Assembly: GCA_963734495.1 (NCBI GenBank)
Contig: CAVTHK010000013.1
Coordinates: 448,001-512,000 of the forward strand
Reading direction: 5' to 3'
From: an uncultured Spirochaetota bacterium
Lineage (GTDB): Bacteria; Spirochaetota; Spirochaetia; SZUA-6; CAVTHK01
Length of the DNA stretch: 64,000 bases
The position numbers and the translations under genes were made by a program. The notes under the pieces are model-generated. The model was not told where the DNA came from. It worked only from the letters and a program-made list of their open reading frames with translations, and ran no database searches. Positions 9,065-35,573 of this stretch are shown here, piece after piece; the stretch's first letter is position 1; each line of letters begins with the position of its first letter.

Positions 9065-9783
9065 GCCCCGCCTCCCCGCTGCCCGGTGATCCAGGACGCC
9101 AGGCCGGCGATCGCCGCCACCGGGTCGGTGCGCGCTTCGGGCCGCGCGTCCACCAGCGCGGCCACCGGCTCGGCGAGCTCGCGGGCGCGGCCTTCGCCGA
9201 GGAACGGCGCCCGCTCGGCGAACCGCACGACGGCCTTCTGCTCCATCAGCGTGAGGGCGACCGCCGGCGCCGCGGCCTGCGCGCCGCCCCGCGAAGCCGC
9301 CTGCCACACCGGCGCGCCGCCGTCGCGGTAGACCACGAGCGTCCCCGCCGCGAGGTCGCCGAGGCGGCGGAACCCGCGGGTCGCGAGCATCGTCACCAGT
9401 GCCGTCACGGGCACCAGGGGAAGCATGTCGGCCGCGCGCAGCAGGTTGCGGATCAGGGAAGCAGCCGCGTCCACCGGCAGCCCGCTGGCCCGCACGACCT
9501 GCAGCCGGAACAGCGCCTTTCCCGGCGTCGCCCCTCCGCGCAGCAGCTCGAAGGCCACCGGGTAGAACCAGGTCACAGCGAACGCCAGGACATACGAGAT
9601 GCCGCTTCCCACCGCGCCGCCGAACGAAAGGGGAACCACGAGGAGCAGCAGGAGGAGAAACTGCAGGAACGAGTCGAAGAGCCACGCGCCCAGGCGCGTG
9701 ACCGGACCGGCGGGCCGAAGCTCCAGGATCACGCCCTCGGGTGTCTCGACCGGGAAGACGGTGTCGAGGTAGGTCGAGGCCAT
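9061..9783 (-). CDS. RDD family protein
   Basis: VETPEGV, RLGAWLFD, GATPGK, IRNLLRAAD, RLGDLAAGTLVVY. Confidence 0.9.
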   Translation of the reverse strand: MASTYLDTVFPVETPEGVILELRPAGPVTRLGAWLFDSFLQFLLLLLLVVPLSFGGAVGSGISYVLAFAVTWFYPVAFELLRGGATPGKALFRLQVVRASGLPVDAAASLIRNLLRAADMLPLVPVTALVTMLATRGFRRLGDLAAGTLVVYRDGGAPVWQAASRGGAQAAAPAVALTLMEQKAVVRFAERAPFLGEGRARELAEPVAALVDARPEARTDPVAAIAGLASWITGQRGGGA

Positions 9784-30702: not shown

Positions 30703-31086
30703 TCAAGCCGGCGGCTCGCGCGCGATCTCGAACGCGGGCTGGAGGGCGCGGAGCGCGTCCTCCAGCCTTTCCGACCTCACCAGCACGTAGTCGGTGTCGT
30801 AGGTCGAGATCGCGAAGATGCTCACGGCTGCCCGCGCGAGCGGCTCGAGCACCGAAGCGAGGACGCCCGTCTCGCCGAACGGGATCGGCCCCTCCAGCTC
30901 GAGCACGGTCCAGCCGCGCTCGGCGCGGGCGTCGGGAGGCACGAGCCTGCATTCGCAGACTACCGACAGCTCGCGGCTGGAGCGCGTGACCGCTGCGAAT
31001 CGCGACCCTCGGCTCCACTCGGGGACCTCCGCAGCGGCGTCGAGCCGACAGACCGCGACTTCCATCGGCAGCACAAGGATCTTCAT
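30703..31086 (-). CDS. ACT domain protein (ACT_7/CASTOR-like)
   Basis: ELSVVCE, GWTVLELEGPIPFGETGVLA, SIFAISTYDTDYVLV; overlaps thrS stop by 4 bp. Confidence 0.88.
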   Translation of the reverse strand: MKILVLPMEVAVCRLDAAAEVPEWSRGSRFAAVTRSSRELSVVCECRLVPPDARAERGWTVLELEGPIPFGETGVLASVLEPLARAAVSIFAISTYDTDYVLVRSERLEDALRALQPAFEIAREPPA

Positions 31087-32888
31087 CGCGCCCCCCGGAT
31101 TCCGGCGTGCTGCGCCCGCTCGCCGACCTCGCGCGCGAGCAGGTCCGCGAACGCGCCGGCGTCGAGCGAGACCTTCTCGCCGGTGTCGCGGTTGCTCACC
31201 GAAAGCCGCCGCGCCGCCGCCTCGGCCGCGCCGACGACGGCCACGTACGGGACGCGCAGCGCCCGCGCGTCGCGGACCCGGCGACCCAGGGTCTCCTCGC
31301 GCGCGTCCACCTCCGGGCGCAGCCCGCGCCCGCGCAGCTCGCCCTCGAGCTCGCGCGCGTAACTCTCGTGCGCGGACGCGACGGGAAGAAGCCGCACCTG
31401 CACGGGCGCGAGCCATGGCGGAAGGGCGCCTTCATACTTCTCCAGGAGGAACGCGATCGTCCGCTCCAGGCACCCGACCGAGGAGCGGTGGATCACCACG
31501 GGACGCGCACGGCTTCCGTCGCCGGCCGCGTACTCCAGGCCGAACCGCTCGGGCAGGACGAAGTCGACCTGTATGGTGAACAGCGTCTCCTCGCGGCCGT
31601 GGACCGTGCGCATCTCCACGTCGATCTTGGGACCGTAGAAGGCCGCCTCGCCCCGCGCAGCTTCGTACGGGAGACCGCGACGCCGCAGGACGTCGAGCAG
31701 GATCCCTTCAGCTTTGTCCCAGACTTCCTCGCTTCCGGCATAGCGGCTGTCGCCGGGCGAATGGAGCGAAGCCCGGTAGCGGCAATCCCCCTCGAAGCCG
31801 AGAGTGGCCATCACGTGCTGCACGAGATCGAGCACGCGATCGAGCTCCGCGGGGACCTGGTCGGGCCGGCACATGATGTGGGAATCGGCGAGGTGGAAGG
31901 CGAGCGCGCGCGCCAGGCCGTACAGCTCGCCCGATCGCTCGCGGCGGTAGAGCGGAGAAATCTCGGCGTAGCGCACGGGGAGCTCCCGGTACGAATGGGG
32001 GCTCGCGCGGTACAGCATGAAGTGGTGCGGGCAGGTCATGGGCCGCAGGACGAGCTCCTCGCCTTCGAGGCCGATCGGCGGGAACATCGCCGCGGCGTAG
32101 TGAGCGAGGTGCCCGGAGGTCTCGTAGAGCTCGCGGCGGCCGAGGGCCGGGGTGTAGACGATCTCGTACCCGCGGGCGATCTCCTCGTCCACGATGAAGC
32201 GTTCGAGGACGCGGCGGATGACCGCGCCGCGCGGAAGGAGCATCGGGAGCCCGCGGCCCACTTCGTCCGAGATCACGAAGAGGCCGAGCTCCTTTCCGAT
32301 CGTGCGGTGGTCTCGCTTCTCCGCGTCGGCAGCGCGCCTGCAGTGATCCGCCAGCTCCGCCGCCGAAGCGAACGCCGCGCCCGCGATGCGGGTCAGCATC
32401 GGGCGGCTCTCGTCGCCCATCCAGTACGCGCCGCTCACCGCCTCGAGGCGGAACACGGCGCCGGGCGCCAGCGCGGCGGCCGGCGGACGGTGCGCGAGCA
32501 TCGGGATCCCGCCGATGCGGACGAGCGTCTCGTCTGCGAACCCGCCGCGCTCCAGCTCCTCGCGGACGAGCGGCTCCGCGGCGGCGAAATCGAGCGCCTC
32601 TTCGGCGGAGAGCCGCGTCATCTCCACGGGCGACGCGTCCAGGAGCCGGCGCATCGCGGCCTCGAGCGCGGGCAGCCGGTCGGTTCCGAGGCGTGAGGGC
32701 AGCATAAAGTCGTGGTAGAAGCCCGTGCCCGTCGTCCCGCAGGAGCCGAGCACGGCTCCCGGGATCACCTCCCTGACGGCTGCCGCGAGCGCGGCGCAGA
32801 GGAGACGGCGCTGACCTTCGAGAGCCTCGGTGAGGTCGAAGGCCGGCGCCCCGGCCCGCGCGGACGCGGGCGAAGAGGCGTGGACCAT
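31083..32888 (-). CDS. thrS: Threonine--tRNA ligase with degenerate editing domain
   Basis: RDHRTIG, LYETSGH, RPMTCPHH, GEAAFYGPKID, VIHRS, WLAPVQ; GGAGG RBS. Confidence 0.93.
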   Translation of the reverse strand: MVHASSPASARAGAPAFDLTEALEGQRRLLCAALAAAVREVIPGAVLGSCGTTGTGFYHDFMLPSRLGTDRLPALEAAMRRLLDASPVEMTRLSAEEALDFAAAEPLVREELERGGFADETLVRIGGIPMLAHRPPAAALAPGAVFRLEAVSGAYWMGDESRPMLTRIAGAAFASAAELADHCRRAADAEKRDHRTIGKELGLFVISDEVGRGLPMLLPRGAVIRRVLERFIVDEEIARGYEIVYTPALGRRELYETSGHLAHYAAAMFPPIGLEGEELVLRPMTCPHHFMLYRASPHSYRELPVRYAEISPLYRRERSGELYGLARALAFHLADSHIMCRPDQVPAELDRVLDLVQHVMATLGFEGDCRYRASLHSPGDSRYAGSEEVWDKAEGILLDVLRRRGLPYEAARGEAAFYGPKIDVEMRTVHGREETLFTIQVDFVLPERFGLEYAAGDGSRARPVVIHRSSVGCLERTIAFLLEKYEGALPPWLAPVQVRLLPVASAHESYARELEGELRGRGLRPEVDAREETLGRRVRDARALRVPYVAVVGAAEAAARRLSVSNRDTGEKVSLDAGAFADLLAREVGERAQHAGIRGAR

Positions 32889-32953: not shown

Positions 32954-32993
32954 AAAACAAAAAAGCCCAGAGGTGCTCGTTCACCCCTGGGCT
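32954..32993 (-). terminator. Intrinsic terminator in the thrS leader (attenuator)
   Basis: Minus strand AGCCCAGGGGTG-aacgag-CACCTCTGGGCT followed by TTTTTGTTTT; 12-bp stem with one G-U pair. Confidence 0.88.
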
Positions 32994-33015
32994 CGATCGC
33001 CTCGCGAACCGGCTG

Positions 33016-33117
33016 TCACGACCGCGCTGCTGGTCGCCTCCGCCGGCGGACGGATCGAGCCCCGTGGCGCATCGTCGTCGTCGTGTTCACGAAATTGCGC
33101 GGCTCGGTCCGGTCCAC
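33016..33117 (-). CDS. Thr-rich leader peptide of thrS, (M)DRTEPRNFVNTTTTMRHGARSVRRRRRPAARS; alternative GTG start at 33090
   Basis: Four consecutive ACG codons (33084-33073) plus one ACC; TGA at 33018-33016; lies between promoter and terminator. Confidence 0.78.
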   Translation of the reverse strand: MDRTEPRNFVNTTTTMRHGARSVRRRRRPAARS

Positions 33118-33123
33118 GATGGG

Positions 33124-33152
33124 AAATTAGCACTTTGCGGCGGGCGGGTCAA
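33124..33152 (-). promoter_or_regulatory. sigma70 promoter of the thrS leader
   Basis: TTGACC-17 nt-TAATTT with extended -10 TG; predicted +1 falls at about the GTG at 33117. Confidence 0.7.
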
Positions 33153-33222
33153 CGCGCCGCTGAACCATTTCTGGGCACTGGCCGTTGTAGCGGGGGCGCG
33201 TCCGAGGCTATAAATGCGATTG

Positions 33223-35573
33223 ATGGCTGAGGCCTTGTCGTTCTTCGCCCCCGCTCCGCGGCACGCCGAAGATCTCCTCGCGGCGGAGCTGGAGTCGCTC
33301 GGCGCCTCCGGCCTGCACGAGCACCCCGCGGGCGTCGCCTTCGCGGGGCCGCTGGAGGTCGGCTACCGCGCCTGCCTCTGGTCCCGGATCGCCACGCGCG
33401 TGCTGCTGCCGCTCGCCGAGTTTCCCGCCACCACGGCGGACCACGTGCGCGCCGGCGCCAAGGCGATCCCGTGGGAGCGGCACATGGGGGTGGACTCGAC
33501 CTTTGCCGTGAGCTGCACCCTCGCCGACTCGCCGATCCGCCACTCCCACTACGGCGCCCTGCTCGTCAAGGACGGAGTGGCCGATCGCTTCCGCGAGCTC
33601 ACTTTCCAGAGGCCCTCGGTCGACACCGCTCGGCCTTCGATCCGGCTGCACGTGCACCTCAGCCGCGACCACGCGAGCGTGAGCCTCGATCTGTCCGGCG
33701 AGAGCCTGCACCGGCGCGGCTACCGCACGGGCCAGGGCGCGGCGCCGCTCAAGGAGAACGTCGCGGCCGCGATGCTGCTGCGCGCCCGCTGGCCCGAGAT
33801 CGCGGCGGCCGGCGGCTCGTTCCTCGACCCGATGTGCGGGTCGGGAACGCTGGTGATCGAGGCCGCGCTGATGGCGCTCGACGCCGCGCCCGGGCTGACC
33901 CGCGGCGCCTTCGGGTTCCTCGGCTGGAAGGCTCACGATGCGGCGCTCTGGCGGCGGCTCACGGAGGAGGCCTGGGCGCGCAGGCGGCGAAACGCCGGAT
34001 GCACGCTCCTCGGCTGCGACGCGGACGCCTCGGTCATCGGCAAGGCGAAGGCGAACGCGCTGGCGGCGGGGCTCGCCGGCGTGGTGCGTTTCGAGCAGCG
34101 CAGGCTGAGCGAATGCGTGCCCCCGACGGCTCCCGCGGGACTGGTCGCCGTCAATCCGCCCTATGGTCACCGCCTCGGCGACGCCGCCTCCCTCGTGCCG
34201 TTGTACGAGGCGCTGGGACGCGTGCTCCGCGAGCGATTCGCCGGGTGGAAGCTCGCGCTGCTCACCGCGGACCCGAAGCTCTCGTGGTCCACGGGCCTGC
34301 GCGCCGTGCGCGTCAACAAGCTGTACAACGGGCCGATCCCCTGCGAGGTCACGCACTTCGACCTCGGCGCCCAGGAGCCGGAGGGAGCCGGAGCCTCCGC
34401 CGCTTCCTGCCGCTCCGCCGCCTGCGCCTGCGCCCGCGCCCGCGCAGCCGGAGCAGCCGCCCGAGCCGCCGCCTCCCTCCCCCTACGCCGTGCGCAAGGC
34501 TGCGCGCGAGGCCGAGCGCGAGGCGCCTCCGAGGCCCGAAGCGGAGATCGCCGCCGAAGAGAAGGCCACGCTCGAGAACCGCCTGCGCAAGAACCTGCGC
34601 CGGCTCAAGGACTGGGCGCGCGAGGAGCAGGTGCGCTGCTACCGCGTCTACGACGCCGACCTCCCGCAGTACGCCGTGGCCATCGACTTCTACGAAGGGA
34701 AGTGGGCGCACGTGCAGGAGTACTCGCCGCCGGCCGTCGTGGACGAGGAGCGCGCGGCGCGGCAGGCTGCGCGACGTGGCCGAGGCCGTGCCGGCGGCGC
34801 TGGGCATCCCGCCCGAAGCGGTCTTCATCAAGGAGCGGCGCAAGCAGAAGGCCGGCGATCAATACGAGCGCCTCGACGACCGCGGAGAGCGGCACGAGGT
34901 GCGCGAGGGCGGCCTTCGTTTTCTCGTCAACTTCACCGACTACCTGGACACCGGCCTGTTTCTCGACCACCGCATCACGCGCCGCATGATCGGCGACCTC
35001 GCGCCGGGCTGCGCCTTCCTCAACCTCTTCTGCTACACGGCGTCGGCCACCGTGTACGCGGCGTGGGGCGGCGCCCTGCGCACGGTCTCGGTGGACACCT
35101 CGAACACCTACCTCGCGTGGGCCGGGGAGAATCTCGCGCTCAACGGGTTCACGGGCGAGCGCCACCGGCTCGTGCGCGCCGACGCCCGCGACTTCCTCGC
35201 GTCCGACAAAGGACGCTACGGCCTCGTCTTCATCGACCCGCCGACCTTTTCCAACTCCAAGGGGGACCGCGAGAACTTCTCGGTGCAGCGCGACCACGCG
35301 GAGATGATCCGCGCGGCCGTCGATCGGCTGGACAGCGACGGGGTCGTGGTGTTCTCGAACAACTTTCGGAAATTCAAGCTTGATGAAGAAGGCCTGGCCG
35401 GCCTCGAAGTCACCGACGTTTCGAAACAGACGATCCCCCGCGACTTCACCCGCAACGCGCGGATCCACCGCTGCTGGATCATCAGGCGTCCGCCGGCCGG
35501 CGCGCGCAAAGCCGCCGCGCGCGCCCGCGAGACCCACGCACCGCGGCGGAGGCGCGTCCGTGAGGACTCTTGA
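33223..35573 (+). CDS. rlmKL: Bifunctional 23S rRNA methyltransferase RlmK/L, frameshifted (around 34380-34500 and near 34765)
   Basis: SLHRRGYR, APLKENVAAA, DPMCGSGT, NPPYG; NRLRKN, YRVYDAD, DYLDTGLFLDHR, NLFCYT, DPPTFSNSK. Confidence 0.92.

Follow-up and report, generated by a model that had tools for sequence, protein, structure and literature searches.

A predicted threonine-codon leader-peptide attenuator upstream of a second threonyl-tRNA synthetase gene in a spirochaete

The thrS2 locus, its leader and its target

The window, that is, the whole stretch of DNA of 64,000 nucleotides that was analyzed, belongs to the genome of a spirochaete (three FlaA matches; G+C content of about 68%), here designated G000; one congeneric genome, G001, served as the main comparison. 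A gene for a second threonyl-tRNA synthetase (ThrRS), thrS2, lies on the minus strand of the window and is preceded by a compact leader region. The features are as follows, in window coordinates:

33124..33152, minus strand: sigma-70-type promoter; TTGACC at 33152-33147, 17-nt spacer, extended -10 TG, TAATTT at 33129-33124
33016..33117, minus strand: thrL-like leader ORF of 33 codons; GTG at 33117, four ACG (Thr) codons at 33084-33073
33046..33117, minus strand: segments 1 and 2, forming the protector/pause helix 1:2; loop containing the Thr codons, -34.4 kcal/mol
32989..33062, minus strand: antiterminator 2:3; 33062-33053 pairs with 32998-32989, -47.4 kcal/mol in G000
32955..32994, minus strand: intrinsic terminator 3:4 with U tract; stem 32994-32963, -24.2 kcal/mol
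31083..32888, minus strand: thrS2; 601 amino acids, ATG led by a Shine-Dalgarno (SD) sequence, second ThrRS
30703..31086, minus strand: ACT_7-domain gene; PF13840, E value 4.7e-21

Six nucleotides separate the start codon of the leader ORF (GTG 33117) from the -10 box, and GGGCTCGATC (33062-33053), situated inside this ORF, is complementary to GATCGAGCCC (32998-32989). Within the antiterminator 2:3 lies a further, inner hairpin, which contains the stop codon of the leader, and the layout in both genomes is the four-segment one of the trp, thr and his attenuators, with mutually exclusive 1:2, 2:3 and 3:4 pairings. A preliminary description of this DNA had named the promoter TTGACC-17-TAATTT, the GTG, the 33-codon ORF with its four ACG codons, a hairpin with G-U pairing and a U tract, and a 10-nt complement that overlaps the 5' arm of the terminator. 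All of these elements are present at the coordinates given above; the terminator stem is counted here as 13 pairs, including the last G-U and one internal G-U, with a 6-nt loop, and the 2:3 and 3:4 structures exclude each other in the folds. That picture of the switch was incomplete, as the protector helix 1:2 and the extra inner hairpin had been missed.

The fold of the leader has a z-score of -4.35, with none of 200 shuffles equally stable, and a perfect complement of at least 10 nt between the ORF and the 5' region of the terminator arose in 33 of 20,000 codon shuffles. Four consecutive ACN codons have a chance of about 0.6% per 150 nt of the host genome. Across 1.2 kb there is a single terminator-like site, close to the shuffle mean of 0.5. 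Only 8 of 12 consensus positions of the promoter are matched and, the site being below threshold, a promoter scanner listed none; because of this weak match and the lack of a scanner site, the promoter call rests on its conservation in G001 and not on the consensus. No Rfam family matches the leader at its gathering score, and neither Thr_leader (RF00506) nor T-box (RF00230) matches the leader even at E values of up to 10.

No SD sequence is visible in the sequence before the leader GTG. In a genome-wide count in G000, restricted to long ORFs whose start codon lies close to an upstream stop and to TANNNT boxes accompanied by a -35 element, GTG starts peak 6 nt after the -10 box (16, with a background of 4.75; p 4e-5), and ATG starts show the same 6-nt peak (18 against a background of 5.33; Poisson p < 1e-4). 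This peak fits leaderless starts without mapping the start of the leader itself, and the leader GTG probably lies, leaderless, at the 5' end of its transcript. Short-ORF attenuators with a leaderless GUG or AUG are known from mycobacteria, as reported in a preprint (bioRxiv 10.1101/834739).

ThrS2 scores 509.6 bits against TIGR00418, over the cut-off, and possesses the class II catalytic and anticodon-binding domains; profile searches gave no match of ThrS2 to PF07973 and no TGS match. A Cys and two His zinc ligands as well as the motif 2 and motif 3 arginines align with those of the E. coli and S. aureus ThrRS, with residue roles as assigned in the E. coli enzyme. The editing motifs HxxxH and DxCRGPH (named as in PMC4787780) are absent from all seven full-length members of the ThrS2 clade (P0001-P0006 and P0008; P0007, a fragment without N2, is outside this count), and both are found in 91 of the 127 proteins examined, including the housekeeping P0127 and most close outgroups. 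The clade formed by P0001-P0006 and P0008 has a support of 100 and sits among sequences from Planctomycetota, Desulfarculales and similar ones; because the tree is a quick tree only, no donor of thrS2 is claimed.

The housekeeping gene, thrS1, is located on contig C16; its product scores 641 bits, compared with 509 for ThrS2, and the two share about 40% identity. It falls together with the ThrRSs of most relatives in the order, both editing motifs are present in G001, and no Thr leader was detected upstream of thrS1. In G000 thrS1 is split by one frameshift, probably an assembly error, since the gene is intact in G001 and since splits likewise affect rlmKL and leuA in G000. Judged by its sequence, thrS2 is a second, foreign-type paralogue and not the housekeeping thrS, so that the target originally assigned to the leader stands as a ThrRS gene but not as the housekeeping one, and it is a paralogue devoid of the editing motifs. 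Identity between the genomes is 74% for ThrS2 versus 79-86% for ThrS1, and ThrS2 hence evolves faster. The dN/dS of thrS2 relative to G001 is 0.27 overall, 0.17 in the catalytic domain and 0.36 in N2, and by these ratios the gene is under purifying selection. The ACT_7 gene overlaps the thrS2 stop codon (ATGA), and in G001 such a gene also follows thrS2 directly, 13 nt on and with an SD sequence; it is probably co-transcribed with thrS2. This coupling of a stand-alone ACT_7 protein gene to thrS2 was seen in both genomes.

Several other observations were made on these genes. ThrS2 contains one Asn and six Lys in 601 residues, which places its Asn share in the bottom 0.1% of the 1031 long ORFs of G000; its close relatives have two to three Asn and the housekeeping copy has ten. 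Depletion of Thr in ThrS2 is weak (3.2% versus a median of 4.6%, in the lowest 10% of 1031 proteins). A degenerate residue at what is presumably the position of an anticodon-binding arginine was dropped as a peculiarity of ThrS2, given that it varies also in editing-intact outgroups. ThrRSs of the same subfamily that lack the editing motifs (P0027, P0032, P0030, P0053, P0048) are found on separate branches, which suggests repeated loss. A third tRNA_SAD-domain gene (L207, G000:C6:25054-25176), besides the housekeeping thrS and a match at C16:82163, possibly encodes a trans-editing factor. In G000, a frameshift interrupts the rlmKL gene (window 33214-35573), which is oriented divergently to the promoter; in G001 the gene forms one frame, and the interruption probably reflects an assembly error.

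Conservation of the leader and its setting in the genus and order

Conservation was assessed on two genomes and two contigs of related strains. The G001 promoter reads TTGACG, 17 nt, TG, TAGTGT, with the same 6-nt distance to the GTG, although its spacer (9/17 identical positions) and the DNA upstream (38/78; 49%) have both diverged, and although the gene upstream of the promoter is a different one. The G001 leader ORF has 32 codons, with the same start, four Thr codons and stop as in G000. Identity between the two genomes is 20/22 in segment 1, 20/23 in segment 2, 36/46 in the inner region and 39/46 from segment 3 through the terminator (77-91%), and falls to only 23/66 (35%) downstream of the terminator. 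Helix 1:2 is the same as in G000 (-27.0 kcal/mol in G001), the antiterminator (-41.5 kcal/mol) has one A-U pair changed to G-U, and the terminator stem is kept with its loop replaced.

Contigs of related strains that cover the leader came from runs X2 and X6, which belong to two studies and have depths of 2.8 and 4.0, respectively. In both contigs the stop codon is exchanged for another stop codon (33017), a Thr codon is changed synonymously (33073), an internal GTG is lost (33089) and Asn11 is altered (33086); the X2 contig has one additional in-frame Thr codon. The other indels listed for the strains lie after the stop codon (33004) or in the terminator loop (32979), and two differences are not displayed. 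We read these strain changes as pointing to a frame that starts at 33117 and is translated. The internal GTG (33090, codon 10), considered as an alternative start, is absent from G001 and changed in both strain contigs. Two-sided covariation was not seen among the two genomes and the two low-depth strain contigs, in which stem changes are one-sided and lead to G-U pairs or mismatches.

A close copy of thrS2 occurs in one of the 40 relatives searched, namely G001 (about 74-75% identity), and the best matches in the other 39 have 36-41% identity over the full length. Protein searches of 92 genomes of the order and 401 of the class yielded no further close copy, a DNA search of 401 genomes of the phylum found G000 alone, and, among the matches listed, a metagenome scan gave relatives of 38-50%.

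Among 358 terminator-like matches in G000, 11, at eight distinct sites, are accompanied by a short ORF with a codon run (runs of Arg, Ala, Gly, Pro and Ser were excluded from this count). Three of the eight sites precede a gene for the matching amino acid, these being Thr before thrS2, Leu before leuA and Ile before a cimA-like gene. The latter two leaders are conserved in both genomes:

G000:C16, about 9400-9560, plus strand (L220; L217 in G001): Leu-rich leader with TTG start and strong terminator, before leuA
G000:C3, about 121070-120930, minus strand (L218; L221 in G001): Ile-rich, SD-led leader with terminator, before a CimA-like gene

Ahead of the leuA leader, both genomes have a short ORF that starts just after a -10 box and ends at or just before the start of the leader; it may couple translation. 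The cimA-like gene has its best match to Leptospira-type CimA, below the cut-off on a partial query, and its Ile leader is a probable attenuator on the threonine-independent pathway to isoleucine via citramalate synthase. With the Leu and Ile leaders shared by G001 as well, leader-peptide attenuation is probably a routine device of this genus.

Neither G000 nor G001 yielded a T-box. T-boxes lie directly upstream of thrS in four of 20 order relatives, one of them over the cut-off (L228, L229, L230 and L231; G015, G008, G009 and G002), and in three aligned thrS T-boxes an ACC stands at what we take to be the specifier position. None of 28 thrS loci of other order relatives yielded a Thr leader with a terminator. 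Across 167 thrS loci for which 350 nt or more of upstream DNA were available (a count that left out L001-L005, L116, L198, L199 and loci with short upstream DNA), nine have a Thr-rich short ORF with a terminator, namely thrS2, its G001 counterpart and seven others; the next-best residues in the same set are Ala (3), Lys (2), Ser (2) and Phe (2). The seven other Thr leaders (L058, L089, L090, L101, L133, L149, L152) belong to a separate CPR-rich clade, with none among the nearest outgroups, and bear no evident likeness to the spirochaete leader; this placement comes from a quick tree with flagged compositional bias and no clade test. Inheritance of the attenuator from CPR-type thrS leaders is unsupported, given the separate clade and the lack of likeness between the leaders, and the thrS attenuators of the spirochaete and of the CPR clade are likely to be of independent origin. 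Several records labelled as Gammaproteobacteria group with CPR sequences in the ThrRS tree.

Folding under a masked ribosome, proposed mechanism and rival explanations

The ribosome footprint was masked codon by codon, on the nascent and on the full-length RNA of both genomes. In the nascent RNA, the antiterminator forms with a probability of about 1.0 when the ribosome occupies codons up to Thr12-Thr13, with footprints of 6-15 nt and in both genomes; a footprint of 15 nt at Thr13 of G001 gives 0.71. This probability drops to 0 within a few codons past the Thr run in G000 and G001; because the antiterminator collapses just past the run, the latter marks the point beyond which a ribosome no longer leaves segment 2 open for pairing. 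The terminator forms without a ribosome, or with a ribosome at the leader stop codon. In full-length RNA at equilibrium with a stalled ribosome, the terminator has a probability of 0.69-0.90 in G000 and of 0.97-1.0 in G001; since it dominates at equilibrium despite the stalled ribosome, the switch must be kinetic.

We consider it highly probable that the leader is a ribosome-mediated transcription attenuator, in which a shortage of Thr-tRNA(Thr) would favor the antiterminator and allow the thrS2-ACT operon to be transcribed. Start site, leader translation, termination and threonine response, as well as the activity of ThrS2 and its missing proofreading, are features that we infer. RNA polymerase would start at or near GTG 33117, and a ribosome would initiate on the leaderless message and open helix 1:2. 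With ample Thr-tRNA, the ribosome would pass codon 15 and cover segment 2, the 3:4 terminator would form, and transcription would stop near 32955. With Thr-tRNA in short supply, the ribosome would stall on the Thr codons, 2:3 would pair, no terminator would form and thrS2 would be transcribed. An untranslated leader would adopt 1:2 plus 3:4 and terminate. Threonine starvation or failure of the housekeeping ThrRS would serve as the trigger; since thrS2 is a spare gene, a failure of ThrS1 could just as well set off the switch.

In the fold, segment 2 is set free by a ribosome at each of codons 1-14, and because the antiterminator thus also forms with the ribosome on any earlier codon, folding alone cannot establish specificity for threonine. 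The same folds would suit a general sensor of translation stress that responds to an early stall or to poor leaderless initiation, with the Thr run being incidental or secondary; other codon runs in the leader (Arg runs; five Asn codons in G001) speak for this explanation, as does a precedent in Streptomyces, where some attenuator-like leaders are reported to be unresponsive to mutation of their regulatory codons (PMC1262725). We nevertheless hold it to be very unlikely: the four Thr codons are kept synonymously, and are even extended in frame, where neighboring codons vary, the target is a ThrRS, and a comparable match of codon run and gene recurs in these genomes for Leu (leuA) and for Ile (a cimA-like gene).

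Even less credence is given by us to a switch controlled by a protein or a tRNA without translation, whether through binding of ThrRS to its own leader, the arrangement known from E. coli, or through a degenerate T-box, with the ORF as a by-product of the stems. The conservation of the ORF lies mostly within paired segments, as such a switch would have it, and thrS is preceded by a T-box in four order relatives; the replacement of one stop codon by another and the insertion of 3 nt in frame, however, point to coding, and the missing Rfam, T-box and Thr_leader matches of the leader, together with the lack of T-boxes in G000 and G001, argue in the same direction. The least probable of the explanations is, in our view, that of a decaying relic, in which the attenuator would once have worked but thrS2 would be on its way to becoming a pseudogene, or the terminator would only end a small RNA. 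The faster evolution of ThrS2 relative to ThrS1, its lack of editing motifs and its odd composition (one Asn in 601 residues) would be in keeping with decay, but the frame is open in both genomes, the catalytic domain has a dN/dS of 0.17, the zinc and substrate motifs are kept, and one clade comprises seven full-length members. Ribosome-mediated attenuation by Thr codons, already proposed in the preliminary description, is supported by the conservation in G001, where the Thr run and the stems are both kept in this closest homolog, by the strain variants, and by the footprint-masked folds, which give the antiterminator with a ribosome on the Thr run and the terminator without a ribosome; these are sequence data and computed folds. 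The leaderless start, likewise proposed there as probable, fits the promoter-to-GTG spacing kept in G001.

Known systems and significance for the organism

The elements are real, and the attenuator is most likely one of the classical kind; it is not a member of RF00506. It has in common with E. coli thrL (RF00506) and with the trp/his/leu-type systems a short ORF with cognate codons, the 1:2, 2:3 and 3:4 pairings, and a U tract. The E. coli thrL leader has both Thr and Ile codons; in contrast, the thrS2 leader has four tandem Thr codons only and no conserved Ile codons, begins probably with a leaderless GTG, and serves a synthetase paralogue, not a biosynthetic operon, in a spirochaete host. 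Attenuators of thrS were reportedly predicted in some taxa by Lopatovskaya et al. in 2010. An extra hairpin between the pause helix and the terminator, as found in the thrS2 leader, is described for the his attenuator (PMC1183508).

The pairing of such a leader with thrS, at first regarded as unusual, is less so, as a leaderless, Thr-containing leader directly before thrS has been published for Streptomyces lividans (Droste et al. 2021, PMC8079986). According to the available text of that study, the S. lividans thrL has two Thr codons, one hairpin and no U tract, and its termination mechanism is unclear, whereas the thrS2 leader has a complete and conserved terminator/antiterminator, four Thr codons and an accessory copy as its target; the two leader peptides show no evident likeness. 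Leader-peptide attenuators on synthetase genes are likewise on record for E. coli pheST and for Streptomyces trpS2 and leuS (PMC1262725), and for Bacillus hisS paralogues (PMC2965389), and swaps from T-box to leader peptide are documented in the same two sources. As in the present case, these systems place a sensor of tRNA charging on a synthetase gene, sometimes a second copy, but for other amino acids and in other phyla. A search of the literature, chiefly of the main text of openly accessible papers, found no description of thrS or leader-peptide attenuation in spirochaetes, in agreement with the earlier statement that none was known for this kind of organism. Further cases of thrS attenuators were not apparent in a general literature search, and the supplements of papers on Streptomyces or on premature terminators may list more; the available text of PMC4833913, PMC3766115, PMC9437257 and PMC6614838 has no bearing on thrS attenuation.

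With respect to the target, there is a likeness to Anabaena thrS1/thrS2, where a second, editing-impaired ThrRS (T2) is reported to be induced under low zinc via Zur, with the first copy supplying correction in trans (Rubio et al. 2015, PMC4787780). Both organisms would combine a housekeeping, editing-competent ThrRS with an inducible second ThrRS of impaired editing, but Anabaena T2 keeps HxxxH and DxCRGPH and has residual editing according to the same source, whereas ThrS2 lacks both motifs and has a Thr-codon attenuator instead. Resistant ThrRSs of the ObaO type are, like ThrS2, second copies (PMC11252418). An ObaO-like resistance was rejected, as the two positions at which ObaO is described to differ have their usual glycine and leucine in ThrS2, and the signature is hence absent (PMC11252418).

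Going further, ThrS2 could be conceived as a reserve ThrRS without proofreading that is induced by stalling on Thr codons and brings about a programmed, self-limiting mistranslation, combined with a swap from T-box to leader peptide within one spirochaete order; we regard this as unlikely. If true, ThrS2 would release Ser-tRNA(Thr) at times of Thr-tRNA shortage, and translation would continue at the cost of fidelity. Serine read at the Thr codons of the leader would then let ThrS2 shut off its own attenuator, and the ACT protein would perhaps tune the mistranslation, or ThrS1 would correct it in trans.

New are the spirochaete host, the probable leaderless GTG in combination with a complete terminator switch, and the accessory ThrRS without editing motifs as the target; the mechanism itself is textbook. 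The finding brings a genus of spirochaetes, with three loci (thrS2, leuA and the cimA-like gene), within the range of classical leader-peptide attenuation and provides a full, probably leaderless terminator switch for a thrL-thrS pairing that has been described only tentatively in Streptomyces. By tying a Thr-tRNA sensor to a synthetase without an editing site, it offers a testable case for why cells retain error-prone duplicates and for the occasions on which they use them.
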